From NCBI GenBank assembly GCA_963663035.1, contig OY760074.1, forward strand, positions 2,720,001 to 2,784,000: a stretch of DNA of 64,000 bases. Direction: 5' to 3'. The position numbers and the translations under genes were made by a program. The notes beneath the pieces are model-generated. The model was given only the letters and a program-made list of their open reading frames with translations, ran no database searches and was not told the DNA's origin. Origin of the DNA: Acidobacteriota bacterium. GTDB taxonomy: Bacteria > Acidobacteriota > UBA6911 > RPQK01 > JADFOI01. Positions 18,989-54,750 of the stretch are shown piece by piece; position 1 is the stretch's first letter, and every line of letters starts with the position of its first letter.

Positions 18989-19934
18989 GCAACGCGGCCA
19001 GCGGGCTTGCACACCTGAAACCTTTTTTGCCAGGGCTTGAACCCCTGCTAGAAGACGCGGAAGTGTCCGAGATCATGATTAACGGCCCCGGCAATGTTTG
19101 GATCGAGGCGAGGGGCCGGTTAACGGCTCATGCAGCGCCAGGGTTGGACGAATCGGCCTTGTTACGGGCGGCTATTCACATCGCCCGTCCTTTGGGCCTG
19201 GACCCGGCCACCACGCCCATCATCGACGCCCGGCTCGATGATGGTTCCCGCGTGGCGATCTGTGTTCCCCCGGCCAGTCCCCACGTTGCGATCACCATCC
19301 GGCGATTCGGCAAGCGGACGTTTAGCGCGGCGGATCTAGTCGAGCAGAAAGCCCTACCGGAAAACGTCTTGAAAGCGGCAGAGCAGGTGTTGATGACGCG
19401 GCGCAACATTCTGGTTTCCGGTGGGACCGGATCAGGCAAGACCACCTTGCTCAATGCCCTCATAGAACTGCTACCCGTTGACGAGCGCATTGTGGCAATC
19501 GAGGACACGCTAGAGCTTCGCATTGACCACTCGAATTGTGTCCGGTTTGAGGCCGAGGGTTGCAGGAAGGCGCGGTGACGATCCGCGATCTAGTGCGCCA
19601 TGCCTTGAGGCATCGACCGGATCATATCGTGGTGGGAGAGGTTCGAGGCGGTGAGGCGGCGGACCTGCTGCAAGCCCTCAACACTGGACACGGCGGGTCA
19701 CTCACGACCGTACACGCCAACAACGCGGAGAGCGCCCTATCGAGAATCGCCAGTTGCGCCATGCAGGGCGGCGGGGAGTTGCCGTGGGAGGTCACTTGCC
19801 GAGGCGTGGTGGATGGGATTGCGATGGTCATTCACATGACGCGCCGCGAGGGGCGGCGTTTCGTGGAAGAAGCCGCATACGTCAAAGGTTACGAAGCGAA
19901 GGAGAACCAATGGGAAATCGAACGGCTGGAATGA
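18985..19934 (+). pseudogene. virB11: VirB11/TrbB traffic ATPase, copy 1, frameshift near 19553
   Basis: EIMING, GGTGSGKTT, EDTLEL, LRHRPDHIVVGEVRG, NTGH; one base shorter than copy 2. Confidence 0.85.
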
Positions 19935-20435
19935 ATATCGCTAGCAAACTGAAATCCAAACGATCCGCCAAGATCGGGGTTTTGATCCTGATGGGCGGGA
20001 TGCTTGCGCTCATCACGGAAGCGCAATTTGAGCCGATTGAGGCAACGGTGGTTCGTGGGATTGACGGAGATACCATCCGGGTCCGGGTGCGAGGCAAGGA
20101 CGCACACCGTCCGTCTCATCGGCGTGGACACCCCGGAGACGGTACACCCGACCAAGACCGTGCAGCACTTTGGAGCGGAGGCCAGCGCCTACACCAAGGC
20201 CGCGCTCGAAGGTAAGACGGTGACGCTCGAAGCGGACCCGACCGGAGACACCGTGGACCGCTATGGGCGCTTGCTTCGCTACGTCTACCTGGACGGCCAG
20301 AACTTCAACGCCCGGTTGATCCGCGAGGGATACGGTCACGCCATCAGGAGATTCCGATATTCCTTGAAGGCTCAATTTATCCGGCTTGAGGACTCGGCCC
20401 GGAAAGCGGGCCGGGGGTTGTGGTCCCCGCGATGA
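19931..20435 (+). pseudogene. Thermonuclease (SNase-like), copy 1, frameshift near 20100
   Basis: IDGDTI, VRLIGVDTPE, DRYGRLLRYV, ARKAGRGLW in two frames; N-terminal TM/signal. Confidence 0.85.
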
Positions 20436-20671
20436 GGCCCGGACTCGATCAACGCGCCCTCGACGGCGGGGGACCGGCTGCGGGGCCAGATCCGACCGCA
20501 AGCGTCAGGCTGCGGGCCTTCTCTCTACGATCCACGGACCGCCGACAAGACGGCGGAGCCGTGGGCGGGGCTTGGATTCCCCCATCGTGCCGTGCGGCCC
20601 CCGGAGCATGGGTGTGTCGCCATGTGCCGCTGCCGGTCGCCGGTATCGGTTTGGCCCGGCGCAGGGATCGC

Positions 20672-20713
20672 GCCAGACCGGGGCAAGCCCCTTGCCTGTG
20701 GCATCTGTCACGC
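20672..20713 (+). repeat. Conserved leader motif, copy 1
   Basis: gccagaccggggcaagccccttgcctgtggcatctgtcacgc; also at 21421, 22255 (partial) and 40188. Confidence 0.9.
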
Positions 20714-20842
20714 CCCATGCCTGTTGCCGGTCCTGCCCGTCACCGGCGACGGCGGCGCTTTCCTCCGTGTCAGGTGTCGCCGGTATCGCCATTCACAGGT
20801 GAGCGATAACCGCTCGAACCTTAACTTAGGAGGAAACACAAA

Positions 20843-21103
20843 ATGGCTAACCACAAACCCATTGATGAAGTCCGAATTGGCCGCGTCAAAGCCACGATTT
20901 GGAAGAACGGAACCGAGGACGCCCCGCGTTACAACGTCACCTTTTCCCGTCTCTACAAAGACGGCGATCAGTGGAAGACCACGCAGAGCTTCGGGCGGAA
21001 CGATCTTCTGACGCTTGCAAAAGTGGCGGATCTCGCTCATACCCGCATCTACTCGCTCCCCCAGGAGCAGCCCGACGAGGCCGGGGAGGTTGATGAGTCC
21101 TAG
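20843..21103 (+). CDS. PC4-like small ssDNA-binding protein, copy 1
   Basis: RIGRVKATIWKN...YNVTFSRLYKDGDQWKTTQSFGRNDL; RBS aggagg. Confidence 0.7.
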   Translation: MANHKPIDEVRIGRVKATIWKNGTEDAPRYNVTFSRLYKDGDQWKTTQSFGRNDLLTLAKVADLAHTRIYSLPQEQPDEAGEVDES

Positions 21104-23659: not shown

Positions 23660-25198
23660 ATGGTACTCTTGAAAGAGAGGAGAAGAGTCGTGAGAAGGGG
23701 TATCTTCGCAATTCTCCTATCACTTATAGTCCAGGGAATCCTTTGGGGCCAGAGCCCTGCGGTGGAGCGTCCTGAACTGAAACAAGTGCCTGCCGAGACT
23801 CTGCCGGATCTCTATTTATGTCCACCCTGTGGCCCCTGGGATGCGAGGACAGCGGCCCACCTGATGCGCCGGGCCGGCTTCAGTGCCACGCCTGGAGAAT
23901 TGGGTCGATTGGTGGATATCGGATTCGAGGCGACGCTGGAGGAACTTCTCAACTATGAAGCCGTCGACGATAGCGAGATGGAGGAAGGTCTCGAAGAGCG
24001 GAATTATCCGTTCACCCGGGTGAATAACAATGGTAAACTTCGGGCCAACACTCTCGGGATACAGCGTTGGTGGCTATATCGGATGGTGAACTCCCAGAGG
24101 CAATTGCTCGAGAAGATGACCTACTTCTGGCACGACCATTTCGCCACTTCCGTGAACCCGGTCCGACAGGTGGGAATCGGTGAGCAACCCTATATGATGA
24201 CTCAAAATGAGCTGCTGCGGGAATACGCCTTGGGCAACTTCAAAGAAATGGTGGAGATGATAGCGAAGGATTCGGCGATGTTGGTCTGGCTGGACAACCG
24301 CAGAAACGTGAAGGAGCATCCCAACGAAAACTGGGCCCGAGAGCTGTTGGAACTCTTTACCATGGGAGTGGGTAATTACACGGACCAAGACGTGGTGGAA
24401 GCGGCTCGCGCCTTCACAGGCTGGGGGCTGAACCGCTGGGCCGGAGAATTCGCCTTCTTTCCGGGTCGACACGATTTTGGAATGAAGACCTTCCTGGATG
24501 TGACCGGACCGTTTGATGGGAATGACATCATCGACATTATTTTCGAGCAGGACGTGACCGCTGAATTCATCTCCAGAAAACTCTTTGAATTCTTTGTTTA
24601 CCCGGATCCATCGGAGGAACTTATCGCTGAGCTTGCGGACGTCCTCCGGGAGAACAACTATGAGATACGTCCTCTAATGAGCGCCATCTTCGAGTATCCC
24701 GAGTTTTACTCCGACCGGGCCTATCGTTCATTGATCAAGAGCCCGGTGGACTTGTTTGTGGGACTGTTTCGGGAACTGGGGCTGTCCGATCCTGTGTTCC
24801 TGCCTCGCTTCATGGCTGACACGGGTCAGAAACTGTTTGCCCCGCCCAACGTCAGTGGGTGGACCAGCGGTGTTGGCTGGATCAACACCGCCACCCTTTT
24901 GGCTCGCTACAACTCCTTTAACATCCTTGCCTCATTTCTCGGAGGTGGATCGCTTGACTTCGTGGGATGGGTTCAAACCTACCAACTGTCCAAATCCGAT
25001 GTGGTCGGACTTCTTGTCGACACCATTGTAAAGGGCGATGTCTCAGTGGATACGCGCTACGCTCTGGAACAGTACATGACCACGGATGATTCCGGCAAGC
25101 CGGTGGAGTGGGATATCAACGATGCCGCCATGATCGATAAGAAGGCCCGAGGAGTCTTCTATCTGATCTTGGTACTCCCCGCCTATCAACTGCACTAG
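23660..25198 (+). CDS. DUF1800-family protein
   Basis: AHLMRRAGF, EKMTYFWHDHFATS, MLVWLDN, PNENWARELLELFTMG, KSP, PPNVSGW. Confidence 0.9.
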   Translation: MVLLKERRRVVRRGIFAILLSLIVQGILWGQSPAVERPELKQVPAETLPDLYLCPPCGPWDARTAAHLMRRAGFSATPGELGRLVDIGFEATLEELLNYEAVDDSEMEEGLEERNYPFTRVNNNGKLRANTLGIQRWWLYRMVNSQRQLLEKMTYFWHDHFATSVNPVRQVGIGEQPYMMTQNELLREYALGNFKEMVEMIAKDSAMLVWLDNRRNVKEHPNENWARELLELFTMGVGNYTDQDVVEAARAFTGWGLNRWAGEFAFFPGRHDFGMKTFLDVTGPFDGNDIIDIIFEQDVTAEFISRKLFEFFVYPDPSEELIAELADVLRENNYEIRPLMSAIFEYPEFYSDRAYRSLIKSPVDLFVGLFRELGLSDPVFLPRFMADTGQKLFAPPNVSGWTSGVGWINTATLLARYNSFNILASFLGGGSLDFVGWVQTYQLSKSDVVGLLVDTIVKGDVSVDTRYALEQYMTTDDSGKPVEWDINDAAMIDKKARGVFYLILVLPAYQLH

Positions 25199-25209
25199 GG
25201 AGACTTCAT

Positions 25210-26475
25210 ATGTGTCGGGCCAAGCTATTGAGAAATCGTAGAGACTTTCTGAAAAATCTCACCATGATTTCCGCTACCTTATCGGTACCGGCCTTCCTGG
25301 TTCGGAGTCTTCAGGGAGCACAGGCCTCCATGGTCGGCACAGGTCGAATTCTGGTGGTGATTGAGCTGGCAGGGGGATGTGATGGATTGAACACGATTGT
25401 TCCCTATACCAACGACTTTTACTACCAGGAGCGGCCCACCCTAGCCATCGACCCCCAGAGTGTGTTGCCCCTGGATGACCAGCTGGGCTTTCATCCTTCA
25501 CTCACCGGCTTCAAAGAACTCTATGACAGCGGTAACATGACGATTGTGCAGGGGGTGGGCTATCCTAATCCCAATCGCTCTCACTTCCGGTCCCGGGACA
25601 TCTGGCATACCGCGGAAGCGGAGAAGATCGGCACTAACGGCTGGCTGGCCAAATACTTCGATAATTTTGAGGGTTCAGGATCCTTGCAGGGGATCAACAT
25701 CGGCGGGCGCGTTCCCAAGGCCATGATCTCAGAGTCTGGGTCCTCCCCCTCCATCAAAAGTATCGATACCTACAAGCTCCAGGCCGATCCGCATTATCCT
25801 GGGGACGAGGCCAACAAGAATGCTGCCTTTCAGAGCATTCTCTCGGAATCCTCCACTCGGTTTCCTCCCTTCCAGGAGTATGTAACGCAGACCGTCCTGG
25901 ATGCCACGTTCAGTTCAGCTGAAATCCTGGAAGGTCAGGATAACTACAACAGCACCATTGAGTATCCCGATACTGCCTTTGGCGGTAACTTGAAAACAAT
26001 CGCCCAGATCATTGCCGCCAACATTGGAACGACAGTGTTTTATGCCACCATTTCCGGATTTGACACCCACGCTCGCCAGGTCGATCCGACCGACCCTGAT
26101 GTGGGGATTCACGCCAATCTGCTGGAAACCGTCTCTTCGGCCGTCAAGGCTTTCTGGGATGATGTGCGGGAAATGGGCATGGAGAACGACGTGCTGATCA
26201 TGAGCTTCAGCGAGTTCGGGCGTCGCGTCAGCGAGAACGCCAGTGACGGCACCGATCACGGAACGGCTAACCCAATGTTCCTGTTCGGAGAAAATGTCAT
26301 TCCGGGTCTCTATGGTGAGCAACCCAGTCTGGATCCCCAGGATCTGGATCCCATCGGAGACTTGCTGCACAACGTGGACTTTCGCAGCGTCTACTCGACG
26401 GTCCTGGGCAACTGGCTGGAAGTGGATCCGGTACCGCTGATTGGTGGGCCCTGGCCCATACTTCCGATTCTTTGA
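25210..26475 (+). CDS. DUF1501-family protein (Tat-like RRDFLK)
   Basis: LAGGCDGLN, NRSHF, GFDTH, FSEFGRR, GTDHG, DFRSVY. Confidence 0.9.
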   Translation: MCRAKLLRNRRDFLKNLTMISATLSVPAFLVRSLQGAQASMVGTGRILVVIELAGGCDGLNTIVPYTNDFYYQERPTLAIDPQSVLPLDDQLGFHPSLTGFKELYDSGNMTIVQGVGYPNPNRSHFRSRDIWHTAEAEKIGTNGWLAKYFDNFEGSGSLQGINIGGRVPKAMISESGSSPSIKSIDTYKLQADPHYPGDEANKNAAFQSILSESSTRFPPFQEYVTQTVLDATFSSAEILEGQDNYNSTIEYPDTAFGGNLKTIAQIIAANIGTTVFYATISGFDTHARQVDPTDPDVGIHANLLETVSSAVKAFWDDVREMGMENDVLIMSFSEFGRRVSENASDGTDHGTANPMFLFGENVIPGLYGEQPSLDPQDLDPIGDLLHNVDFRSVYSTVLGNWLEVDPVPLIGGPWPILPIL

Positions 26476-26870: not shown

Positions 26871-26904
26871 ATCAGAATCCTCAATGACTAGTATTACTGT
26901 GTTG

Positions 26905-27732
26905 GGTTCTGGTGCAGATAGGATTGTCGGAGCGATAAGACCAGGAGTGCGCCCCGGCGATGCGGCCTATGCTGCCATGACGTGACGCCAGATCACCGCG
27001 GGATTCGATTGCCATGGGATCGGAATTGCGAACTGGCGTTTGTGAATCTTCTGCGCCAGCTCGATGCCGATAATGACACGTCGCGCATTGTAGAACGTCT
27101 TGAATCCCAACATCGGGCGCAATCGCCCTTTCACCCGGCGGTGGTCCTGCTCTACAACGTTGTTCAGGTATTGACAGCAACGAATCTTCACCGGGTTCCG
27201 CCCCCGGAAGTTGAACTCCCCGTTCATTCCCATGTGCCGCAGGGCGCTATGGCTCGGCCGGTGGCCATCCAGAGTGATGCTGTGTGGCTCCCGATGATGC
27301 TTCAGCGCCTTGCGAAAGAAGGCCTTCGCCGCCGCGATGCCACGTGCCCGACTGAGAAAGAACTCCACAGTGTTGCCCTGTCCGTCCACGGCTCGATACA
27401 GGTACATCCACTGGCCCCGCACCTTGATAAACGTTTCATCAACCCGCCAGCTCCCACCCACCGGCCGTTCGAATCGGCTCCAACGCCTTTCGCAGATTTC
27501 GGCATAGCGAACGACCCACCGCAAGATTGTGGTGTGCGAAATCGGTAAACCCCGCTCACCTAAAATCTCGACCAGGTCCCGGTAACTCAGTTTGAAGCGG
27601 AAATACCAGCGAAGGCAGAGAAGAATGATGTCGTCTTCGAACCAACGTCCGGCAAATAGAGGATTCCGTTCCGTTTTACGATGCACCATGTCCCATTATC
27701 GCCAATTCCCGTTGGCTGTCTGCACCAGAACC
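26905..27732 (-). mobile_element. IS6-family insertion sequence
   Basis: Inverted repeats ggttctggtgcaga / tctgcaccagaacc flank the transposase; no target duplication seen. Confidence 0.92.
26967..27689 (-). CDS. IS6-family transposase
   Basis: RWYFRFKLSYRDL, WRVDETFIKVRGQWMYLYRAVD, YLNNVVEQDHR. Confidence 0.95.
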   Translation of the reverse strand: MVHRKTERNPLFAGRWFEDDIILLCLRWYFRFKLSYRDLVEILGERGLPISHTTILRWVVRYAEICERRWSRFERPVGGSWRVDETFIKVRGQWMYLYRAVDGQGNTVEFFLSRARGIAAAKAFFRKALKHHREPHSITLDGHRPSHSALRHMGMNGEFNFRGRNPVKIRCCQYLNNVVEQDHRRVKGRLRPMLGFKTFYNARRVIIGIELAQKIHKRQFAIPIPWQSNPAVIWRHVMAA

Positions 27733-28228
27733 CTTTGTAGACCAACTGGACATGAGCGTTGAAGAGACGCCGCATCTGGTTGCGGAGCTTGGTGTGTACG
27801 TTGCCGCCGCCGCTACTGTAGATGCCGAGTTCCCGCATGAACTTCGCCAGTGACGGCCCTAGGATCAGCACACGGCTTTGGGTCTGTACCGCTTCGGTCG
27901 AGACCCAGGCCAAGATCAGGCGGGGGAAATTACCGAAGGGGAGCTTGTTGTTGACCCCGGCGATCATGGCGAGCGTGTAGGGACCGTTGACCCGCTTGTA
28001 CTGGAGCCGGTTGCCGGGGTTGCTGCGGGGCAACGAACACAGTGCCATCATTCGCGCCATGAAGCCTCGATCGGCGTCCGCTTCGCTGGCCCTGACAAGC
28101 TGGTTTACCTGATCGGCAACGGTGAAGCCTCGCCGCGCCTGGGGGGAGGCGTCGCGGAGTGCCGGCACGTCATCCAGGCCGGAGACGACCTCGCCGATCG
28201 GAACCAACTCGCCGCGTTTACGCTGCAT
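27733..28228 (-). pseudogene. repA: Plasmid replication protein RepA (RepA_C/IncW-like), 3'-truncated by IS6
   Basis: FMARMMALCSLPRSNP, RVNG, LPFGNFPRLILAWVSTEAV, LGPSLAKFMRELG, LRNQMRRLF; frame runs into the IS6 end. Confidence 0.85.
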
Positions 28229-28323: not shown

Positions 28324-28554
28324 CTACTTAATTACTGTCCCTTCTTGGGCGGTTGCGGCGGTCCTGGGTGGAGAACCTGGCGGTCGCGGCGGTCCTGGTG
28401 GAGAACCTGGCGGTCGCGGTGGTCCTGGTGGAGAACCTGGCGGTCGCGGTGGTCCTGGTGGAGAACCTGGCGGTCGCGGCGGTCCTGGTGGAGAACCTGG
28501 CGGTCGCGGCGGTCCAAGCTTGCCGCTAGCCTTTATGTTTTTTTCATCCGACAT
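28324..28554 (-). CDS. Small proline-rich repeat peptide (GSPPGPPRPP)n
   Basis: Follows the TIR gene in the same orientation; an extra G near 28366 probably shifts the true end ...GPPQPPKKGQ. Confidence 0.5.
   Translation of the reverse strand: MSDEKNIKASGKLGPPRPPGSPPGPPRPPGSPPGPPRPPGSPPGPPRPPGSPPGPPRPPGSPPRTAATAQEGTVIK
28350..28515. repeat. 30-bp tandem repeat, about 5.5 units
   Basis: Unit cggtcgcgg(c/t)ggtcctggtggagaacctgg at 28381, 28411, 28441, 28471, plus a variant at 28350 and a partial at 28501. Confidence 0.95.
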
Positions 28555-28610
28555 ATCGGTCACCCGTTGACTCGGTTAGTAGTTGCTTCGCATTATCGTT
28601 CAGTTACGGT

Positions 28611-29108
28611 TCAATTATCCTTCCGTATCTTGATCGCTTCCTCAACGGCGGCTTCGAGATTCTTCTTAATCCAGTCGTATCGCTCTTTGCTGTTGCTTCC
28701 CGCTGGGTTGTAACACTTCACAATCGACGAGAGTTTTTTACCGCTGTTGCCGTGGGTGATGCTGGTGAACGGGTTGCTCCCTTTAGTCGCGATCTTGCCG
28801 CCCAGGTCTTTCAGGCCGTGCACATGGATGCCGACCACACCCATCCCATCGTCCCAGGACTCGACGATTTCGTGTTTAATCCATTTCCGACCAGCTGTGT
28901 TGCTGCCGACCAGAACCACCGTGCAGGACCGCCCGTGCATCTGGTCGGCAATCCACTTCTTGATAGCTGCGTCGCCACCTTTCGTGACGGTTTCCCAATC
29001 GTTGTCTGACACGGGGGTGTTTCCCTCGATCATCCCCATGTTCCTTACCTGCGCTGCGCGCGAGGCATCGGGCTTATAGTGAAAACTGAAAAACGCTTTA
29101 CGGGCCAT
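28611..29108 (-). CDS. TIR-domain protein (MTH538/DUF1863, ThsB-like)
   Basis: RKAFFSFHY, RAAQVRN, WIADQMHGRSCTVVLVG, RKWIKHEI (catalytic Glu position), GSNPF. Confidence 0.9.
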   Translation of the reverse strand: MARKAFFSFHYKPDASRAAQVRNMGMIEGNTPVSDNDWETVTKGGDAAIKKWIADQMHGRSCTVVLVGSNTAGRKWIKHEIVESWDDGMGVVGIHVHGLKDLGGKIATKGSNPFTSITHGNSGKKLSSIVKCYNPAGSNSKERYDWIKKNLEAAVEEAIKIRKDN

Positions 29109-29110
29109 TG

Positions 29111-29548
29111 TCAAACCTCCCCTACATCATCAGCAGCACCACAAAAGCAGCACCACAAAACAACAAACACAATTGTGACTGTGACGGTGATAGTACCGTG
29201 AAACAGGCGTAGCGTGTGCGACCAGGCAACGCTCCACTTCCCGTCTACACTTTCTTCAAACGGTTGAGTGTTCATCGAGAAATCGACCTGCTCCGCCTTC
29301 GCACCTCTGACGTGGTCGTAGAGCTTCCGAAACAGACGCTCTTGGCGCAAGAAATACGCATCAAGCGCCCAGAACATGAAGACCGGAAAGTAGGTCAGGA
29401 CCACAAAGAGCAAGTTGGTGCTGGCGGCGGCGAGCGCGAACAAGGCCGCAACCAACGTCACGTTCCAGCGCTTGATGAGGAACGAGTTGCTCGCCATTCT
29501 TGTGATGACCGCTTGGATCATCTGCAGGTGCGCGATCTTGGCTTCCAT
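29111..29548 (-). CDS. Membrane protein (about 3 TM), probable TIR-linked effector
   Basis: HLQMIQAVITRMASNSFLIK, FWALDAYFLRQERLFRKLY; RBS aagga before MEAK; stop 2 bp before the TIR ATG. Confidence 0.75.
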   Translation of the reverse strand: MEAKIAHLQMIQAVITRMASNSFLIKRWNVTLVAALFALAAASTNLLFVVLTYFPVFMFWALDAYFLRQERLFRKLYDHVRGAKAEQVDFSMNTQPFEESVDGKWSVAWSHTLRLFHGTITVTVTIVFVVLWCCFCGAADDVGEV

Positions 29549-29800
29549 GCCGTTCCTTTCGTCATCTGTCATGTTGCCCTGTTTTGATAAGACCCGCGCC
29601 CGCGCTTCAGCGCTCCGCTTATTTAAGGGGCCTTTCTCTGAGCCTTCCCGCAAGAGCCGAGGCCAGAAGGGAAGCGGCAAGTTACCGTAGGGGAGTTTGT
29701 TAATCTGCGCCCGCCACCATGACTAGCTTGTACGGACTATGCATGGGCCTTTCCGTCGGAACGCCACCGACAGCCCCGCGACCGCTTCGTCAGCACATCC

Positions 29801-30118
29801 TCAGCCGTTGCAAACCGGCTTCCACTTCTCGATCAGGTCGTCTTCCTCCGCACGACGCAGCCGCTCATCACTAGGAGTAGTGTGTGTATGGATGTGGGTT
29901 GCACTGTTTCGCGTGGCGCACGCCTCCTTTTCGTGATCGGCCAGACGCTCTGAGAGGCTGGAGGTCTGTCCAATGTACACAGGACGCCAGCTCCGTGGTG
30001 TTGTTTCCGCAGCATAGATGTAGTTACCGGGTTCATCCTTGAAATCCGCTCCAATCGGACAAATCCAATAGTCGTACGTCTTACCCGAACCGCCTTTCCA
30101 TTTGATGCTTTTAGCCAT
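29801..30118 (-). CDS. Small GIY-YIG nuclease-like protein
   Basis: PGNYIY...VYIGQT..L.ERL..H...E.DLI...P.CN pattern. Confidence 0.75.
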   Translation of the reverse strand: MAKSIKWKGGSGKTYDYWICPIGADFKDEPGNYIYAAETTPRSWRPVYIGQTSSLSERLADHEKEACATRNSATHIHTHTTPSDERLRRAEEDDLIEKWKPVCNG

Positions 30119-30133: not shown

Positions 30134-31513
30134 GAGCTACCCTCAAAAGGTGTGTAAATAGCACAGGCGGTGATTATCCTTCCGGGTGAAAATAAAAACC
30201 CGGGCGGAAGAGCCCGAAAGGAAGGAGTCACACCGCCATGAGCAAGAAGAACATTGATCACAGTGTGGAGTCAAGAGTCTGCTTTGAACAGCTGGAAGAG
30301 TGGGTGCGAGAGCAGATCCAGTTTTACGTACAGGAACTGCTGGAGGATGAAGTGACACAGCTGCTGGGACGAAGAAAGAATGAGCGTCGCCGAGAAGTGG
30401 ACGCCTCCGGTGGCTATCGCAACGGCTACGGCAAGGAGCGGCGACTGACGATGAGTTGCGGAACGATCAAGCTGCGGCGTCCCCGAGTGCGGGATCTGGA
30501 AGAGCGTTTTGAGAGCCGGGTCTTGCCGCTGTTTGCCAAGCGAACGCGAGAGGTACGAGACTTGATTCCAGAACTCTATTTACATGGTCTGGCCGAGGGG
30601 GATTTCGATCTGGCCTTGAGAGGGCTTTTAGGGGAAGAAGCGCCGCTGTCCCCCAGCACCGTAGCCCGGTTGAAACAGAAGTGGCAGGGAGAAATGGAGG
30701 CCTGGCAGAGCCGTCGGCTGGATGATCTGGAAGTCGTGTATTTGTGGGCGGACGGCGTGTACATCAAAGCAGGGCTGGAGAAGGAGAAGGCCGTGATTCT
30801 GGTAGTGATCGCCGCTTTAAGTGATGGCACTAAAGTGGTGGTGTCCGTCAGTAGTGGTTATCGAGAATCGACCCAGAGCTGGTCCGCAGTGCTGCGGGAT
30901 CTCAAAGAGCGGGGGATGAACCCACCCCGTCTGGTGATCGCTGACGGGCATCTGGGGATCTGGGGAGCGTTGCGCAACGTGTTCCCAGAAGCCGACGAGC
31001 AGAGATGCTGGAATCATCGCATCGTCAACTTGCTGGCCAAGATCCCCAAGAGTCGGCACAAAGCGGCCTTGTTGATGTTGCGGCAGATCCCTTATGCAGA
31101 AACACGGCAGGAAGCCGAGCGAGTCAAAGGACGATTCCAACATTGGTGTAGCAAGAGAGGCCTGGAGGCAGCGGCTGATCTGATCGACCAGGACTGGGAG
31201 CGGATGGTGACGTTTTACAACTATCCCAAACAGCAGTGGCAACATCTGCGGACTACCAACCCAGTGGAGTCTCCCTTCTCTGCTCTGCGACTGCGAACCG
31301 ATGCTGCTCGAAGGTTCAAGAAAGTGGCCAACGCACGGGCTGTCATCTGGAAGATGCTGCTGGTCGCTGAGAAGAGATTTCGCCGTTTGAAGGCTCCCCA
31401 CTTGATGAAGGATGTCTACCAAGGAGCCCAATATGTCAATGGAGTTCCAGTCAACCCAGTCACCCAGGAGAAAGCCGCCTGATGTCTATTTACACACTTA
31501 TTGACGGAACCTC
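30134..31513 (+). mobile_element. IS256-family insertion sequence
   Basis: 28-bp imperfect inverted repeats ending gtgtgtaaatag / ctatttacacac; no target duplication seen. Confidence 0.9.
30238..31482 (+). CDS. IS256-family (mutator-type) transposase
   Basis: YRNGY, LWADG, ESTQSW, IADG, QRCWNH, RTTNPVES. Confidence 0.95.
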   Translation: MSKKNIDHSVESRVCFEQLEEWVREQIQFYVQELLEDEVTQLLGRRKNERRREVDASGGYRNGYGKERRLTMSCGTIKLRRPRVRDLEERFESRVLPLFAKRTREVRDLIPELYLHGLAEGDFDLALRGLLGEEAPLSPSTVARLKQKWQGEMEAWQSRRLDDLEVVYLWADGVYIKAGLEKEKAVILVVIAALSDGTKVVVSVSSGYRESTQSWSAVLRDLKERGMNPPRLVIADGHLGIWGALRNVFPEADEQRCWNHRIVNLLAKIPKSRHKAALLMLRQIPYAETRQEAERVKGRFQHWCSKRGLEAAADLIDQDWERMVTFYNYPKQQWQHLRTTNPVESPFSALRLRTDAARRFKKVANARAVIWKMLLVAEKRFRRLKAPHLMKDVYQGAQYVNGVPVNPVTQEKAA

Positions 31514-31594
31514 TACTAGACCGTCTAAATATCTAGCTTAACTAGCCATCCCATAAGTTTAGGCGAAGCGTTGGGAGCATAGAGCCATCTTCCC

Positions 31595-31710
31595 TGATCG
31601 GCTTGGGTGAAGTGCCGACGCGCCTGGGGCGAGGTGTCTCGGATTGTTTGCACCGGTCCGGGCAGTTTACCGAGGGCTTCCCCGATGGAAATCAAGTCGT
31701 CCCTTGCCAC
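31595..31710 (-). pseudogene. repA: 5' stub of a second repA
   Basis: MARDDLISIGEAL...RDTSPQARRHFTQADQ aligns with the N-terminus of the repA at 28228 (GELVPIGEVV...RDASPQARRGFTVADQ). Confidence 0.75.
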
Positions 31711-31716: not shown

Positions 31717-32145
31717 TCAAGGATTTTGGTACGTAAACCCAGCCTTCGTGATTTCCTCGCCGAAGGTTTCAAGCCATTCAATCAACAAGCCGTACACATT
31801 AACAGCAGCCTCGGCTACCTCTTTTGATTGATTGTTGGTGTAGGTATATCCGTGTTGCCACAACTGATGAACAATCCGGTTCCGCCTCTGATTGAGTTGT
31901 TGTAATTCGCCGACAAAAACTGCCTTGGGATAACCCTGATCTATCAGATACAGTCCGTATGCAGCAACAAGTTGGTTGAAAATCCCGCGTGGTTTATTGA
32001 CGCGTAGAAAGGCCCGAAGCAGAGCCTCAACTAAAGTGTGCACTAGCAGAAAGGCGTCCATGTAGCGGCCTTCGCTTAGCGCTTTTGCCGCAGCCTGCTC
32101 GTTGGCACGAACCACAAAGGAATAATCGGGTCTTTCCGTTACCAC
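31717..32145 (-). CDS. HEPN-like protein (RxxxxH motif), putative RNase
   Basis: All-helical, VEALLR and LNQRRNRIVH; GTG start with ggaggtgg RBS just after higA. Confidence 0.65.
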   Translation of the reverse strand: MVTERPDYSFVVRANEQAAAKALSEGRYMDAFLLVHTLVEALLRAFLRVNKPRGIFNQLVAAYGLYLIDQGYPKAVFVGELQQLNQRRNRIVHQLWQHGYTYTNNQSKEVAEAAVNVYGLLIEWLETFGEEITKAGFTYQNP

Positions 32146-32149
32146 CGAT

Positions 32150-32452
32150 TTATCGTGCCACCTCCAAGGTCTGGATTTTTGCGTAGTCTGTCGAGTGCTC
32201 ACGCTCAGCGTCCCACATGTCAATCGCCTTCTGCATGTTGACCCAGAGTGTCGGACCGTTGCCGAAGAGCTTCCCGATCCGGTGTGCCATGTCGGTGCTC
32301 ATCGGTCTTCGTCCTTGGCAAATCTCGTTAATGGTCCTGCGCCCGACACCGACAAGATCCGCCACCTGCCCCTGATTGAGTTCCCGAGCCTCGATCTCGC
32401 TCCGTAGCAACCTGCCTGGATGCGTCGGTCGCCTCTCCAGATTTCTAGCCAA
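32150..32452 (-). CDS. higA: HigA-family antitoxin
   Basis: PTHPGRLL, HTH, INEICQGRR, MAHRIGKLFG, WVNMQ; TTG start. Confidence 0.9.
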   Translation of the reverse strand: MARNLERRPTHPGRLLRSEIEARELNQGQVADLVGVGRRTINEICQGRRPMSTDMAHRIGKLFGNGPTLWVNMQKAIDMWDAEREHSTDYAKIQTLEVAR

Positions 32453-32469
32453 TGTCCCGCCCTCCGTTC

Positions 32470-32748
32470 TTAGTGATAATCTTCCAGGTCTACCTCTACG
32501 GCATCTCCCGCCTCGAATCTGAAGGTAATCCTCCAGTTCTTCGTCACGGTCATTCCCCACTCACCCTTTCGGTTGCCTTTCAGCGGGTGGGTGCCGAGCG
32601 TCAGGAGGTTCAAGTCTTCCACTTTCTCTGCTGCGGCCAATGCATCCAGAAGAAGTTCAACCCTGGACCTCCATTGAGGGTTGATCCTCCGGTAGTTTCC
32701 ATCTTCAAACGCCCTCCTAAGGACTTTAGAAGCGAAACTCTTGATCAC
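32470..32748 (-). CDS. higB: HigB-family (RelE-like) toxin
   Basis: MIKSF, HPLKGNRKG, NWRITFRF, VDLEDYH. Confidence 0.92.
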   Translation of the reverse strand: MIKSFASKVLRRAFEDGNYRRINPQWRSRVELLLDALAAAEKVEDLNLLTLGTHPLKGNRKGEWGMTVTKNWRITFRFEAGDAVEVDLEDYH

Positions 32749-32753
32749 AAAAG

Positions 32754-32780
32754 ATAGTGTAACATTAAATGTTACACTAT
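32754..32780. promoter_or_regulatory. Perfect palindrome, probable HigA operator
   Basis: atagtgtaacatt-a-aatgttacactat immediately upstream of higB. Confidence 0.75.
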
Positions 32781-32911
32781 AGTCGCCATCACCGGCTACG
32801 GCAGCCCGAGGATTATTTCGACATGTTCTACGTGGAAGGCCTTTAGGCTATGCGCTTGTCCTGGAACGAAATTCGTGCGGGCGAGGATCTGTTGGAGAAG
32901 GACGAGAACGC

Positions 32912-35749
32912 ATGAGTCACCCGCGCAACACGGAACCGCAAGCGAACGGTGCGCTGGCTCGTGCGCTGAGCCGACGAAATCCCGACTGGAATGATAGGAC
33001 TGTTCACGCCGAGCGGACCAACGTGATTCAGCAAGTTGCGCTAAGCACAGGAGCAGGCAAGAGGCCGGATATTCTCATCGACTCTCCTCGCCGCCAGCCG
33101 GTGATCTTGGAGACGGAGTTCGCCCCTGCACACACGGTTGATCAAGACGCGACCGCCAGACTGGGGACGAGCTTGCACAGCACCGGAGAGGAGATTGAAG
33201 GCGTGCTATCCGTTGTCCTGCCGGAGAGCCTCAAGACAGGCGACCTCGAAACCGTCGACAGAGCTGCGTTCCGATACGCAACGCACTACTTGGACTCCAA
33301 GGGAGATAGCATCCGCTGGCCGCCAGAGCGGGAGTGGCTTGAGGGGGGCGTGGACGATCTCGCGGATGCCATCGAGTACCTGTCCCTTTCGGAACGGCGA
33401 TTGGCTCGAGGGACGGAAGCCCTCGAACAAGTGGTGCGGAGCGCGGCGGAACTGCTAGCCGAGCACGCCGGAGAAGGCCCTCTGGAGCGGATCTCCAGAG
33501 ACTTGCATCAGGAAGCGGGCGAGCAAACCGAGCGCATGGCGGTGGCTATCTGCGTCTCGGCCTTTGTATTCCACGTGGCCATCGAAGGGCAGAAACACAT
33601 CCCGCCTGTTCCGTTAGCGGGCTTCATCGACAAGGGGAGGCTTCTGAGCACATGGAACGCGATTCTCGAAATTAACTACTGGCCGATCTTCAGCATTGCC
33701 TGTGACCTAGTGAAGGAATTACCAATCAAGGCTGTGCCGCCGGTCATGAACCGAATTGCGGAGTCCATCTCCGACTTGGCCCAGCTGGGTGCGACTACCT
33801 ATCACGACCTCACGGGGCGGATGTTTCAGACCCTCATCACAGATCGCAAGTTCCTCGCCACCTTCTACACATTGCCTGAATCTGCCTGCTTGCTCGCGGA
33901 ACTGGCGGTCGATCGGCTGGATGTGGACTGGTCGGACAGGGCCGCTATCGAAGGGCTGCGGATTGCGGACTTCGCCTGCGGCACAGGGGCCTTGCTCTCC
34001 GCTGCGCAGCGTGCAGTCTATCGGCGCTACCGCAGGGCTGGGGGCGATGATAAGGACTTGCATCGACCCCTGATGGAGCACGTTCTGACTGGGCTGGACG
34101 TCATGCCCGCCGCAACCCATCTCACCTGCTCCATGCTGTCCAGTGCCCACCCCTCGCTCGGCTACGGGGAATCACAGATCCACACAATGCCCTACGGCAT
34201 CGACGGCAACAGAACACACATCGGCGCACTCGACCTTCTCAATTCCAGCCATTCCTACTCCCTGTTCGCCACAGGCGAGTCCATGGGCGGAATGAAATCG
34301 AACAGCCGTAGTGGCCACTCCGTCACTATCAAGGATAAGTCCTGCGATCTGGTCATCATGAACCCCCCGTTCACGCGCCCCACGAACCACGAGGCCAGTC
34401 ATGCCGAGATACCGGTTCCATCGTTCGCTGGCTTCAATACGTCGCATGACGAGCAGCAAGCGATGCAACGGAAGCTCAAGAAAGCCACCACCTCCTTGTT
34501 CAGCAGCGGCCACGCCGGCCTTGCGTCGAACTTCATGGACTTGGGACACCGCAAGCTGAAAGATGGCGGCGTGCTGGCCCTAGTTATTCCGTTCGCTTTT
34601 GTCCGGGGCAAATCATGGAAAAAAGCGCGAGAGGCACTGAAGGCTCACTACAGCGACATTCATGTCACGTCCATTGCCGCTACCGGCTCGACGGCACGGG
34701 CATTTTCCGCGGACACTGGCATGGCCGAGTGCCTTGTCGTGGCGACGCGACGAAGTGGGAGCAACTCCTGTGCAGCGTACTCCAATCTACCGGCAAGACC
34801 CTCCTCTCTCCTTGAAGCCGCCGTAGGAGCGAAGACCGCAAGGGGCCAAACCGTGCAGGGCGATATTCTCGACACGGGTGTAGCGGGTGTCCGATCCACA
34901 AGCGTCATCGAGGCGGCCCGTGATTTGGAGGCAGGGAATCTGCGCCTGCCACGGCAGGCACAAGCGGTCAGATTACCCGTGGTGACGCTCGGCACCGTAG
35001 CAGCGCGCGGCCTTGTCCATAGAGACATCAACGGCGGTCCTACGGATCGCAAAAAGGAAGGCCTGGCGCAAGGCCCTTTCATCGTGCGTTCCATCCGCCC
35101 CGGTGAAGTGCCGACTTACCCGATGCTCTGGGCTCATTCCGCCGTCCGGGAGCGCAAGTTCGTAGTGCAGATCGACTCCTGCGGAGATCCCCGCCCGGGT
35201 GACGAAACGCGATCAGCCGAGCGTTGGAATCGAGCGGCATCTCGCCTGCACGCCAACCTGGACTTCCGGTTGAACTCCCAGAGCCTCGCCATGTGCCTCA
35301 CGCCAGAGAAGTGCCTCGGGGGCACGGCGTGGCCGAACATCAATTCCAGGGACGAGCGCCACGAGATTCCGCTGCTCCTGTGGGCCAACTCAACACTGGG
35401 TCTGATCTTATTTTGGTGGAAGGGCACGCGGCAGCAGGCGGGCCGTTCAAGGATGACGATCACAGCGATTCCCGATCTCCCCGTGCTCGACCCGCGCACC
35501 TTGACAGAGGGTCAGACGGATCACTGCCACGCGATCTTCGACGACTTGAAAGATCGCGAGTTCCTTCCCGCGAATGAAGCGTGGCGAGACGAGACGCGCA
35601 AGGATCTCGACCGCGAACTGCTGTTCGGAATCACGAGCGTGCTGCAACTCGACCGGGGCCTAGAGGAGGGGCTAGACCTGCTGCGGAAGCAGTGGTGTGC
35701 TGAGCCATCCGTCCACGGCGGGAAAGGTACTCGAATCGATGTGCCGTGA
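32912..35749 (+). CDS. Fused restriction endonuclease / N6-adenine methyltransferase (type IIG-like)
   Basis: N-terminal RPDILI...ILETEF nuclease-like motif, FYT, DFACGTG (motif I), IMNPPF (motif IV), C-terminal TRD-like region. Confidence 0.85.
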   Translation: MSHPRNTEPQANGALARALSRRNPDWNDRTVHAERTNVIQQVALSTGAGKRPDILIDSPRRQPVILETEFAPAHTVDQDATARLGTSLHSTGEEIEGVLSVVLPESLKTGDLETVDRAAFRYATHYLDSKGDSIRWPPEREWLEGGVDDLADAIEYLSLSERRLARGTEALEQVVRSAAELLAEHAGEGPLERISRDLHQEAGEQTERMAVAICVSAFVFHVAIEGQKHIPPVPLAGFIDKGRLLSTWNAILEINYWPIFSIACDLVKELPIKAVPPVMNRIAESISDLAQLGATTYHDLTGRMFQTLITDRKFLATFYTLPESACLLAELAVDRLDVDWSDRAAIEGLRIADFACGTGALLSAAQRAVYRRYRRAGGDDKDLHRPLMEHVLTGLDVMPAATHLTCSMLSSAHPSLGYGESQIHTMPYGIDGNRTHIGALDLLNSSHSYSLFATGESMGGMKSNSRSGHSVTIKDKSCDLVIMNPPFTRPTNHEASHAEIPVPSFAGFNTSHDEQQAMQRKLKKATTSLFSSGHAGLASNFMDLGHRKLKDGGVLALVIPFAFVRGKSWKKAREALKAHYSDIHVTSIAATGSTARAFSADTGMAECLVVATRRSGSNSCAAYSNLPARPSSLLEAAVGAKTARGQTVQGDILDTGVAGVRSTSVIEAARDLEAGNLRLPRQAQAVRLPVVTLGTVAARGLVHRDINGGPTDRKKEGLAQGPFIVRSIRPGEVPTYPMLWAHSAVRERKFVVQIDSCGDPRPGDETRSAERWNRAASRLHANLDFRLNSQSLAMCLTPEKCLGGTAWPNINSRDERHEIPLLLWANSTLGLILFWWKGTRQQAGRSRMTITAIPDLPVLDPRTLTEGQTDHCHAIFDDLKDREFLPANEAWRDETRKDLDRELLFGITSVLQLDRGLEEGLDLLRKQWCAEPSVHGGKGTRIDVP

Positions 35750-35850
35750 GGACCGGAGCTCCAAAGCCTCCCGAAGCGGAGCTTGTGAAAGGGGTCTCGA
35801 TTGACGGCTATTCGACGTTCCGGGCAACGCGGTTTTCGGAGCCGGTTTGA

Positions 35851-36208
35851 GGGGCCAAATTCGGGGTGTTTTTCATGCCGCTGGGGGCCGCTTATTTTTT
35901 GCCGCAGGGACAAAGGGGGGGGTACGGCATAAAAAAGCGTGGGGGTGGAACATCCCCACATTCCTTGAACTCTTTTGTTTTCCGTGGTTTGCCCCTACTA
36001 TTCGGCTTCCATAATGACGATACAGAAAAATCCGGGAAGACGATAGCGACCCCCCCCGAAACGGGGGTTCCTCCCGGCCCCGTGTAGCGGCGCGATGCGG
36101 CACGCCCCTACACCGGCCCCAGGGGGTCGCTATCGTCGGTATTTATCCCTGCGGGAAGGCTCGGAAAAGACGCCCCGGAGCGGCGTGGATTAAGCGGAGA
36201 ATGGCCCT
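35851..36208. other. Structured intergenic region, oriT/oriV candidate (copy 2)
   Basis: Same inverted repeats as 16321..16677. Confidence 0.45.
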
Positions 36209-38500
36209 ATGGAATTGCGGAAGAACTGGCGGAAACTGACCACGGCCTTGAGCCGGTTTTGGCACCGGGAGGCCGGGCCGATGAACTGGAAAAACCCCGT
36301 CCGCGTGACGGCCTATATCGGCTGGGAAGTTTTCAACGGCGTGGCTTTTTTGGTGGGTGAATGGGTCCGGTACGGCGTCCGGGCCGGGCAGATTTTCCTG
36401 GCAATTCCCCCCACCGCGATTCTCTTTTTAGGGGGGGGTTGGTTCGCCGTTTGGAGCTTTGTACGGCGTCCTTTTCCGGCGCTTGAGACGGTCCCATTGC
36501 TCGATCTTTTGGAGTATCACAACCCGAATTTTTACAGCGCCGTGGTCCTCTGGTACTACCTTTCGCCGCTGGTGGCGGTGATGCTGGCCGGGTCTATTGC
36601 CCTGTCCGTTTGGAAGATTTGGATCGAGGCGCGCAAGCGGGATCTTTTGCCCTTCGGGGCGCTTCCCGCTTGGCCGCTTTCGCCGGAGCAGTCCGGCCCG
36701 GAAATCGTCATCGGGGAAGTGCATCATCCGGTCGAACCCAAGGAGATTTTCAACCCCGAATGGCTCACCATCCCGGAGCGCGGACTGTACACCGGCGTCG
36801 CTATTTTCGGAGCGGTGGGGAGCGGTAAAACTTCGGCTTGTATGCACCCCTTCGCCAAACAGCTACTCTCCTGGCAAGCGGACGATCCAGAGAAGCGGGC
36901 GGCGGCGCTCATGCTCGAAGTGAAGGGGGATTTTTGCCATGACATTCGCTCGATCCTGGATGGCGCGGGCCGGGGAGACGACTACCTAGAGATCGGAATG
37001 GGGGGCCTCTGGAAATGGAATCCCCTCTCCGCTTGGTGGCTCGATTCGTACTCGCTGGCCTACACCGTTGCCAGCCTTCTCAATCAACTTTTCGGCAAGG
37101 GCAAGGAGCCTTTTTGGCAGCAAGCCTATACCAATCTGGTGCGCTGGATTATCGAGCTTCACCGGGTGCTACCGGAGCAGTGGGTGACATTGCAGCAGGT
37201 CTATCGATGCGCGATTGACCCGGATCTTTTCGCGGCCAAAATCAAACAGGCCGAGAAGTGGAGCGCGGAGCTTAACACCGGACAGGTTTTCGTGAAAACC
37301 AAAACTTGGAGGCCAAAGATCGTAGACCTTGGAGAGTGGACGTGGACGCCCATACCAGAGACAGAAGAATCGCGGGCCAAATGGAGCCCGGAATTGGAGC
37401 ATAAGCTAAAGGAATTAGGGATCAAGCCTCGTATCGTTTGGGAGCCCGGAGCCGGTGACGATGTGAGAGAGCGGGTGGCCGCTGTGAAGCGGTGGTTTGA
37501 TAATGACTGGCGAAAGCTGGACAACAAAATCAAATCCTCGATTGTCGAAGGCGTTTCCGTATTCCTGTCGATGTTCGATATGCCGGACGTGGCGGCGGTG
37601 TTCTGTCCCCCGCCCCCGGAAGTGTCCGACGATCCCCGGCGCATTGGCCCGAAGGCCAGGGCCGCGATGCTGGCAGAGGCCAAGGGCCAGGGGGAGGCCA
37701 GCGCCGAGAAGAAGGCCCAGGAGTCCCGGCAATGGCCCGGAGATACCATTGCCGGAAGGCCGCGTCACCTGCCCCCGCTCTATGAATTGATCGAGGACGG
37801 CAAGGTGCTGGCCTTGAATATGCCAGCCGGGAGCAACCCGGCGCTGGCCCGCGCCATCGGCGTGATGCTAAAAAACGCATGGCTCCAAGCCTTGCTCATG
37901 CGGCCCGCGCAGATGAAGGAATCCCCAAGTACTTACTTCCGTCCCGCTGTCTTTATTTGCGACGAGTACCAAGCGTTCGCGTCGGTGGGCGAGGACGATC
38001 CCACCGGCGATGAGAAATCCTTTGCTTTAACGCGGCAATGCCGGTGCATCCCGATTGTTGCGACCCAATCCATATCCTCATTGCGGGCTGTGCTGGGCAG
38101 TTCGGAGGCGTGGCGGGCGCTTTTGCAGACACTCCGCACCCGGATCTTTCTATCCTTGAGCGACGACGCTAGCGCCAAGATCGCATCGGAATTGTGCGGG
38201 CAGGTTGCCAAGATCAAAGGATCGTACACGATCAGCGAGACCTCGAAGCGGGCGGGCGTGTCCCCGCTATCGGGCCGGGCCGGTGGAGGCGGCGGGAGCA
38301 TCGGCGCAACCAAGTCTTTCCAGGAGCGCCGGGAGGCCGTCTTTCACCCGCGAGATTTCACCTTGCTTGCGAACTGTCAGGCGATTTGCTTGCCCTATGA
38401 CGGAGCGCAATCGCTGGAACCCCGGAGGGTCTATCTCAAACCTCACTATCTTCCCTTGGATCATTCTTATTGGAGAGCGAAGGAGGCCGGACAGATATGA
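36209..38500 (+). CDS. virD4: VirD4-like type IV coupling protein, intact copy
   Basis: N-terminal TMs, Walker A GAVGSGKT, LEVKGD, EPFW, Walker B FICDEYQ, VATQS. Confidence 0.9.
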   Translation: MELRKNWRKLTTALSRFWHREAGPMNWKNPVRVTAYIGWEVFNGVAFLVGEWVRYGVRAGQIFLAIPPTAILFLGGGWFAVWSFVRRPFPALETVPLLDLLEYHNPNFYSAVVLWYYLSPLVAVMLAGSIALSVWKIWIEARKRDLLPFGALPAWPLSPEQSGPEIVIGEVHHPVEPKEIFNPEWLTIPERGLYTGVAIFGAVGSGKTSACMHPFAKQLLSWQADDPEKRAAALMLEVKGDFCHDIRSILDGAGRGDDYLEIGMGGLWKWNPLSAWWLDSYSLAYTVASLLNQLFGKGKEPFWQQAYTNLVRWIIELHRVLPEQWVTLQQVYRCAIDPDLFAAKIKQAEKWSAELNTGQVFVKTKTWRPKIVDLGEWTWTPIPETEESRAKWSPELEHKLKELGIKPRIVWEPGAGDDVRERVAAVKRWFDNDWRKLDNKIKSSIVEGVSVFLSMFDMPDVAAVFCPPPPEVSDDPRRIGPKARAAMLAEAKGQGEASAEKKAQESRQWPGDTIAGRPRHLPPLYELIEDGKVLALNMPAGSNPALARAIGVMLKNAWLQALLMRPAQMKESPSTYFRPAVFICDEYQAFASVGEDDPTGDEKSFALTRQCRCIPIVATQSISSLRAVLGSSEAWRALLQTLRTRIFLSLSDDASAKIASELCGQVAKIKGSYTISETSKRAGVSPLSGRAGGGGGSIGATKSFQERREAVFHPRDFTLLANCQAICLPYDGAQSLEPRRVYLKPHYLPLDHSYWRAKEAGQI

Positions 38501-39447
38501 GCAACGCGGCCAGCGGGCTTGCACACCTGAAACCTTTTTTGCCAGGGCTTGAACCCCTGCTAGAAGATGCGGAAGTGTCCGAGATCATGATTAACGGCCC
38601 CGGCAATGTTTGGATCGAGGCGCGAGGCCGGTTAACGGCTCATGCCGCGCCGGGGTTGGACGAATCGGCCTTGTTACGGGCGGCTATTCACATCGCCCGT
38701 CCTTTGGGCCTGGACCCGGCCACCACGCCCATCATCGACGCCCGGCTCGATGATGGTTCCCGCGTGGCGATCTGTGTTCCCCCGGCCAGTCCCCACGTTG
38801 CGATCACCATCCGGCGATTCGGCAAGCGGACGTTTAGCGCGGTGGATCTAGTCGAGCAGAAAGCCCTACCGGAAAACGTCTTGAAAGCGGCAGAGCAGGT
38901 GTTGATGACGCGGCGCAACATTCTGGTTTCCGGTGGGACCGGATCAGGCAAGACCACCTTGCTCAATGCCCTCATAGAACTGCTACCCGTTGACGAGCGC
39001 ATTGTGGCACTCGAGGACACGCTAGAGCTTCGCATTGACCACTCGAATTGTGTCCGGTTTGAGGCGCGAGGGTTGCAGGAAGGCGCGGTCACGATCCGCG
39101 ATCTCGTGCGCCATGCCTTGAGGCATCGACCGGATCATATCGTGGTGGGAGAGGTTCGAGGCGGTGAGGCGGCGGACCTGCTGCAAGCCCTCAACACTGG
39201 ACACGGCGGGTCACTCACGACCGTACACGCCAACAATGCGGAGAACGCCTTATCCCGGATCGCCAGTTGCGCCATGCAGGGCGGCGGGGATCTTCCTTGG
39301 GAGGTCACTTGCCGAGGCGTGGTGGATGGGATTGCGATGGTCATTCACATGACGCGGCGCGAGGGGCGGCGCTTTGTCGAGGAAGCCGTGTACGTCAAAG
39401 GTTACGACGCGAAGGAGAACCAATGGAAAATCGAACGGCTGGAATGA
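38497..39447 (+). CDS. virB11: VirB11/TrbB traffic ATPase, intact copy
   Basis: GGTGSGKTT, EDTLEL, RPDHIVVGEVRG, NTGHGG, TVHAN. Confidence 0.9.
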   Translation: MSNAASGLAHLKPFLPGLEPLLEDAEVSEIMINGPGNVWIEARGRLTAHAAPGLDESALLRAAIHIARPLGLDPATTPIIDARLDDGSRVAICVPPASPHVAITIRRFGKRTFSAVDLVEQKALPENVLKAAEQVLMTRRNILVSGGTGSGKTTLLNALIELLPVDERIVALEDTLELRIDHSNCVRFEARGLQEGAVTIRDLVRHALRHRPDHIVVGEVRGGEAADLLQALNTGHGGSLTTVHANNAENALSRIASCAMQGGGDLPWEVTCRGVVDGIAMVIHMTRREGRRFVEEAVYVKGYDAKENQWKIERLE

Positions 39448-39948
39448 ATATCGCTCACAAACTGAAATCCAAACGATCCGCCAAGATCGGGGTTTTGATC
39501 CTGATGGGCGGGATGCTGGCCCTTATCACTCAGGCTCAATTTGAGCCGATTGATGCAACGGTGGTTCGCGTCATTGACGGAGATACCATCCGGGTCCCGG
39601 GTGCAAGGCAAGGAGTACATCGTCCGTCTCATCGGCGTGGACACCCCGGAGACGGTACACCCGACCAAGACCGTGCAGCACTTTGGAGCGGAGGCCAGCG
39701 CCTACACCAAGGCCGCGCTCGAAGCCAAGACGGTGACGCTCGAAGCCGACCCCACCGGCGACACCAGAGACCGCTACGGGCGCTGGCTTCGCTACGTCCT
39801 CCTGGACGGAGACAACTTCAACGCCCGGTTTATCCGCGAGGGATACGGTCACGCCATCAGGAGATTCCGATATTCCTTGAAGGCTCAATTTATCCGGCTT
39901 GAGGACTCGGCCCGTAAAGCGGGCCGGGGGTTATGGTCCCCGCGCTGA
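39444..39948 (+). pseudogene. Thermonuclease, copy 2, frameshift near 39597
   Basis: VVRVIDGDTI then extra C (gtcccgg); VRLIGVDTPE...DRYGR in the next frame. Confidence 0.85.
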
Positions 39949-52170: not shown

Positions 52171-52179
52171 AATAAATCC

Positions 52180-54737: not shown

Positions 54738-54750
54738 AGCGAGAACCACA

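Follow-up and report, generated by a model that had tools for sequence, protein, structure and literature searches.

A probable type V Thoeris pair of ThsB and a small PDC-M50A-family membrane protein in a rearranged, defence-rich mobile element

Two adjacent genes on the minus strand of the window (the whole stretch of DNA analysed here, 64,000 nucleotides), one for a stand-alone TIR protein of the ThsB clade and one for a small membrane protein, are likely to constitute a type V-like Thoeris signalling system (ThsF–ThsB, PDC-M50), with the open reading frames on either side as independent cargo. The identity of the two genes, their intact reading frames and their conserved pairing are read directly from the locus. 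Judged by its profile matches, the pair is already catalogued as the candidate PDC-M50, and as type V Thoeris the system has probably been validated as well. The original prediction had described a new variant of TIR signalling with a minimal membrane effector; its reading of a TIR that acts on a membrane effector is probably right, but the claim of novelty falls, because the PADLOC check that it had called for returned both PDC-M50A and PDC-M50B, and a match to an already described system was what the prediction itself had named as counting against it.

In the ORF map, the order along the minus strand is GIY-YIG-like ORF, membrane protein gene, TIR gene and Pro-repeat ORF, with the boundaries that had been predicted. 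These features and those of the surroundings are listed in Table 1.

Table 1. Features of the module and of its surroundings, in window coordinates.
Feature	Position	Strand	Remarks
GIY-YIG-like ORF	29801..30118	-	stand-alone, 105 aa; neighbour outside the system
Three-TM effector gene, PDC-M50A family	29111..29548	-	145 aa; probably ThsF, DUF2270-related
14-bp tandem duplication	29132..29159	.	end of the third TM helix of the effector
thsB, stand-alone TIR signal enzyme	28611..29108	-	165 aa; type I-like clade, Glu80 intact
Pro-rich ORF	28324..28554	-	76 aa; outside the system
IS256-family element	30146..31500	+	Pfam Transposase_mut E 8e-60; inverted repeats; directly upstream of the module
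repA-like gene	27587..28228	-	Pfam RepA_C E 1.7e-7; downstream of the module, cut by the IS6-family element
IS6-family element	~26904-27733		DDE_Tnp_IS240 E 5e-40; IS ends seen; interrupts repA
Second 5′ repA fragment	~31590-31710		repeat, 77% over 64 nt
4.85-kb segment, two copies	16224-21066, 35755-40584		94% identity; coupling protein, VirB11-like ATPase, nuclease, small genes
HEPN-like 168-aa ORF, HigBA, 945-aa methyltransferase-containing RM-like protein	31717-35749		HEPN Pfam E 0.007, below cut-off
PDC-S01, then BREX cluster (brxA, brxB, brxC, pglX, pglZ)	52162-64000

The TIR gene and its membrane partner

The TIR protein was compared with profile and structure collections with the following results: ThsB_TIR in Pfam (E 4e-26), ThsB (E 7.5e-69) and PDC-M50B (E 4.1e-64, profile positions 1–160 of 162) in PADLOC, and 8WCF (E 8e-38) and 6LHY (E 1e-20) in the PDB, the last being ThsB of Bacillus cereus (PMC7272460, PMC11204291). 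In the alignment with 6LHY the first-strand motif is identical, and Glu80 lies opposite the corresponding Glu. This residue, which we take to be the catalytic glutamate, is present in all full-length TIRs from related loci (43/43), and the predicted ThsB-like TIR with its conserved Glu was thus borne out. The window protein departs from the columns conserved among locus TIRs at a single position and conservatively (V96 for I), and a strong ribosome-binding site is kept before its gene. Relatives on plasmids (48–52% identity) were examined at ten loci: a SIR2 gene is adjacent in four, the TIR gene lies upstream of a phospholipase gene in two, and four are set among other TIR or hypothetical genes. 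The pairing of the same TIR clade with SIR2 effectors elsewhere points to a signalling role. In the two phospholipase loci, L090 and L092, the gene behind the ThsB-clade TIR carries the annotation CBASS cGAMP-activated phospholipase.

The membrane protein matched PDC-M50A of PADLOC over profile positions 1–131 of 134 (E 6.4e-50, 166.9 bits), four M50A models being matched in all. Against Pfam and NCBIfam at E≤0.1, no domain was found except one chance-level Pfam match, in keeping with the predicted lack of a SIR2, SLOG, Macro or caspase domain; ThsA is likewise absent as predicted, since no ThsA model was matched at E≤1e-5 among the 78 ORFs of the window (at least 170 codons each). Hydropathy gives three hydrophobic stretches, with peaks near residues 28–45, 46–64 and 112–134, and the predicted structure is a helical hairpin (pLDDT 88.5). 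With this model, Foldseek returned no match at E≤0.001, and the best VIA-align matches (Z up to 9.0) were unrelated helical bundles, below the level that is meaningful for such folds; the family profile had no match among PDB sequences. Prediction of a four-copy complex gave a median of 0.37 against a mark of 0.42 and is given no weight here. The ESM Atlas, queried with the homologue P0085, returned clusters without names and a weak 8xMP lead at 0.84, and nothing relevant was found in the literature on 8xMP.

The effector family has 5,111 representatives when clustered at 50%, and 1,313 of 1,353 candidates clustered at 90% belong to it; a pattern search of GTDB genomes gave 361 matches, 298 of them relatives, and further ones were found in 122 plasmid records, 3 phage records and one PHROG. 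The closest relatives belong to Acidobacteriota genomes (77% identity). The effector tree, a quick version over 134 columns in which 41 of the 77 inner branches are open, was used for nearest neighbours only.

When 107 diverse family members were searched against Pfam, DUF2270 was the most frequent match (22/107, best E 1.4e-5). The matches share one register, with protein residue 26–33 on profile position 23–24, and cover about positions 23–106 of the 184 of the profile; the curated cut-off of DUF2270 (PF10028) was passed by one of 30 rescanned relatives (P0135, 25.2 against 25), and the window effector itself has no match to it. DUF3278 was matched nearly as often (21/107), so weak hydrophobic matches are common in this family. 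SLATT, DUF6650, Macro and ion-channel families were absent from the 25 of 70 Pfam families listed for the 107 relatives, and in the 60 plasmid rows listed, out of 142, no feature carried a DUF2270 annotation.

Seven new Thoeris types have been verified, and 29 putative types include various TM proteins (Yirmiya et al., bioRxiv 10.64898/2025.12.03.692087). For ThsF, the type V effector, that work gives a DUF2270 annotation, three TM helices, 470 copies and a predicted heptameric channel whose subunits enclose basic pockets between them; type V was first noticed in a TIR cluster common to types I and IV (bioRxiv 10.64898/2025.12.03.692087). From this published description we infer that the window effector is most likely ThsF, its three TM helices, the DUF2270 link seen among its relatives and the type I clade of its TIR all fitting. 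That it is instead another of the predicted TM types or the partner of TIR-IV, perhaps with a different ADPR-derived signal, appears unlikely. The DUF2270 link is weak and limited to the part of the profile given above, TM proteins are among the putative types, and the genera of TIR-IV overlap those of the plasmid matches of the family (PMC11350192); but no SLATT, DUF6650 or ion-channel family appears among the Pfam families listed for the family, and none of the TIR-IV accessions could be connected with a protein of the family.

The effector domain also occurs in fusions, some of which may be read-through artefacts: with ThsB in P0399, with DUF6338 in P0393, and behind a SLOG cluster 2 domain in P0396 and P0183 (by eye also in P0156). 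Among Actinomycetota plasmid matches, H155–H157 and H161 are distant effector matches inside genes annotated as HIT domain-containing, with a ThsB-like TIR near that gene in H155 and H156; these are possibly a HIT–TM fusion effector.

Conservation of the pair, flanking frames and genomic setting

Loci were surveyed with the membrane protein as the sole query, and the best 80 of 298 were kept; these are related and dependent on one another. A ThsB-clade TIR gene is present in 50 of the best 80 and lies on the same strand within 1 kb in 49. Other TIR-type domains (TIR_2, TIR, SEFIR; one with NB-ARC) were found beside the effector in 10 further loci when 30 of the 45 candidate neighbours in the remaining loci were scanned. 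A TIR gene of any kind is thus present in 60 of the best 80 related effector loci, and the conservation of the gene pair, proposed as a check by the original prediction, supports its reading of a TIR that signals to a membrane effector. No TIR was detected in 20 of the 80, one of which has just 119 bases of downstream flank; six of these 20, five from Acidobacteriota and one from Aminicenantes, group together in a single well-supported clade. In this orphan-effector clade (L005, L007, L011, L013, L015, L031), three effectors lie behind a homocysteine S-methyltransferase-like gene. GIY-YIG, RepA, HEPN-like, HigA and HigB were used as control neighbours and were found in none of the 80 loci by BLAST, with phmmer adding one marginal RepA. 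The same pair occurs in plasmid records and in a prophage-like record, in either gene order. In two Thiomargarita genomes (L037:1840-5967, L043:1904-5968) the effector stands behind a large STAND NTPase–WD40 gene, in which no TIR was detected.

The GIY-YIG-like and Pro-repeat ORFs are bystanders, independent cargo of a rearranged mobile element; neither travels with the pair, and both are therefore placed outside the system. The predicted GIY-YIG ORF is there, about 250 nt upstream of the effector and directly behind the end of the IS256-family element, and by eye it shows the Tyr, Arg, Glu and Asn that are typical of the motif; but its Pfam match is below the cut-off (17.4 bits against 22.6, E 0.0054), with E 0.0015 for a PHROG endonuclease, homologues were found in none of the 80 loci, and no plasmid was matched. 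The predicted Pro-repeat ORF is likewise present downstream, but it sits on a 30-bp tandem repeat of 5.6 units (28348–28515) that is open in all six frames. When the 30-bp units were shuffled, at least one minus-strand frame was open in 99.97% of cases and all six in 30%, so that its status as an ORF is by itself no evidence of a Pro gene. It starts with ATG behind a plausible ribosome-binding site, and the variants of the inner units are synonymous in the Pro frame; in the last unit a 1-nt insertion, either genuine or due to an error in sequencing, alters the C-terminal frame. No family in Pfam, PADLOC, NCBIfam or PHROG was matched, and a Pro-rich ORF like that of the window was found behind thsB in 0 of 35 loci, the lone Pro-rich match being a long unrelated protein. 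A possible pairing of short Pro-rich peptides with DUF6338 genes was also considered and discarded, as no DUF6338-like ORF and no similar peptide were found in the 80 loci.

A four-gene system that includes the GIY-YIG protein and the Pro peptide, or a TIR that is itself an NAD-depleting killer with the TM protein as its sensor, is highly improbable. All four ORFs are co-oriented, the Pro peptide has the start, ribosome-binding site and synonymous variants just described, and TIRs of unverified Thoeris types could be effectors (bioRxiv 10.64898/2025.12.03.692087); the absence of both flanking ORFs from the related loci, the distance of the GIY-YIG ORF from the effector and the signalling role of the same TIR clade beside SIR2 effectors argue against it.

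The integrative conjugative element that carries the core pair, read as a two-gene system of the type V kind, is rich in defence genes and has been rearranged. The module lies between the 5′ repA fragment with the IS256-family element and the repA gene cut by the IS6-family element. No target duplication was formed at the flanks of the IS256-family element, so this junction has been rearranged; no integron-like or att-like repeats were seen around the module. Type IV secretion, coupling-protein and nuclease genes surround it, several of these names being read from sequence. In the first copy of the 4.85-kb segment the genes are split over several frames, and in the second the coupling protein and the ATPase are intact. 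A DUF1800–DUF1501 gene pair inside the element (23660–26475) has a G+C content of 0.53, below that of its surroundings. The 493-aa ORF at 45644–47125 had no PADLOC match; by eye, we take it to combine tyrosine/dual-specificity phosphatase-like and ADP-ribosylglycohydrolase-like domains.

The 14-bp duplication and Arg27 of the window effector

The duplication shifts the reading frame just ahead of the usual stop of the family and adds 11 residues. With one copy of the 14 bp, residue 134 would be the last of the frame, which would stop 21 nt short of the thsB start and before reaching its ribosome-binding site; with two, it ends at residue 145, 2 nt before the start, so that the effector stop has been moved past the TIR ribosome-binding site. 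Residues 135–145 are gaps in 71–100% of 119 close homologues. The length of 145 aa and the tight coupling to the TIR gene, both of which had been predicted, are therefore real but local accidents of the duplication: the family norm is about 134 aa, and short gaps as such are usual among its members, with a median of 10.5 nt over 42 loci and at most 5 nt in 14 of the 42.

At position 27 the window effector carries Arg, a residue seen there in none of 106 diverse relatives, 91% of which have Gly. Arg27 is, in turn, common to 23 of the 119 close homologues, and the mean number of departures at conserved columns is 1.21 for Arg27 carriers against 1.14 for Gly27 carriers (p 0.75). These counts lend no support to G27R as a mark of decay. 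The window effector also keeps all 36 of the other columns that are conserved at ≥75%. Taken together, the figures suggest that the window copy is a variant belonging to a subclade and not a degraded gene, although Arg27 and the 11-residue tail may impair it.

Under a different reading, the pair is the decaying remnant of a type V system, with an effector harmed by G27R, S29N and the duplication and a promoter disturbed by the IS256-family element. The absence of Arg27 from the 106 diverse relatives, the C-terminal duplication, the broken repA genes on both sides and the IS256-family element without target duplication would all agree with this, as would the search for sigma-70-like sites on the minus strand between 28100 and 30400, which found none. 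We consider it improbable nonetheless, given the Arg27 carriers among the close homologues with their even count of departures, the complete lack of departures at the other conserved columns, the intact TIR and its strong ribosome-binding site.

Proposed mechanism and comparison with known systems

The working of a type V-like pair is modelled here on the type V work as regards trigger, signal, oligomer and membrane damage. The type V system of B. thuringiensis defends, and its TIR makes 3′cADPR upon infection; 3′cADPR is toxic when added, and defence is weaker in the presence of the sponge Tad1 (bioRxiv 10.64898/2025.12.03.692087). A second type V system, from Bacillus sp. 1NLA3E, gave no response to added 3′cADPR, so that the published parallel for signal-dependent toxicity comes from one Bacillus system only (bioRxiv 10.64898/2025.12.03.692087). 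In the window system, ThsB would detect a phage protein; for staphylococcal ThsBs, capsid proteins are the trigger (PMC12578639). Judging from its clade and the intact Glu80, ThsB would then use NAD+ to make an isomer of cyclic ADP-ribose, 3′cADPR being the likeliest, and this signal would bind basic pockets between the subunits of a ring-forming three-TM effector. The candidate signal site is made up of H7, Q12, R17, N21, S22, K26 and W28 of helix 1 and of D63, E70, R74 and Y77 of helix 2; in the effector model, the conserved polar residues of the two helices all face the same side of the hairpin in the membrane. The effector ring would finally breach the inner membrane, and the infected cell would arrest or die before the phage matures.

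It is conceivable, though doubtful, that the Arg27 subclade reads another ADPR-derived signal and, more broadly, that the effector is a general nucleotide-gated pore. In this subclade, whose nearest named loci are Acidobacteriota genomes, the near-invariant Gly27, part of a conserved K-G-W motif that lies at the predicted signal pocket, is replaced, and signs of decay are absent. The variety of inputs found with the effector (TIR_2/SEFIR, TIR-like NB-ARC, STAND–WD40 and fused SLOG) is what suggests the general pore. If true, this would make the effector more than type V's own.

As a type V-like pair, the locus adds one Acidobacteriota-like example to a widespread system of TIR and membrane effector, and it is no better suited than hundreds of known ones to settle the ThsF pocket, the pore or the missing response to 3′cADPR. 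Two by-products are the putative link between PDC-M50 and ThsF, of which no statement was found in the literature searched, and a natural G27R variant with which the predicted signal pocket can be probed.

Among the systems with which the pair was compared, TIR-IV of E. coli is a two-gene TIR system in which both genes are needed and from which phages escape through mutation of the major capsid protein (Wang et al., PMC11350192). The genera in its table (Lactiplantibacillus, Levilactobacillus, Priestia, Klebsiella, Escherichia, Campylobacter; PMC11350192) overlap the plasmid hosts of the effector family, and TIR-IV may be related to the window system; comparison of TIR-IV accessions with effector family members gave no tie, and the parts of PMC11350192 and its supplements that were examined name no domain for the partner.

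Type VII (ThsH, SLATT, canonical cADPR) and type II (TM-Macro, His-ADPR) share with the window pair a TIR signal and a membrane effector, but the window effector matches neither SLATT nor Macro, a remote homology to SLATT being conceivable. Type I (ThsA SIR2-SLOG with ThsB, 3′cADPR) is alike in its TIR, which is homologous in the window and in B. cereus, and unlike in its effector, the window having a membrane protein and no ThsA among its 78 ORFs.

With type V, the window pair shares a stand-alone ThsB of the type I clade beside a small three-TM effector, a weak link to DUF2270 through its relatives and a broad spread over phyla; it differs in that the window effector has no DUF2270 match of its own, and the comparison with ThsF is one by description only. 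When a Bacillus-group homologue served as query, neither tested type V strain appeared among the names listed for the best 120 matches.

PDC systems are 145 untested candidates drawn from genes embedded in BREX, DISARM and RM systems (bioRxiv 10.1101/2024.01.29.577857), and the main text of that work does not name PDC-M50 (Payne et al., bioRxiv 10.1101/2024.01.29.577857; PADLOC-DB 2.0.0). Apart from the 11-residue tail and G27R of its effector, the window pair is like PDC-M50 in that both genes match the M50A and M50B models and are adjacent, co-oriented and 2 nt apart.
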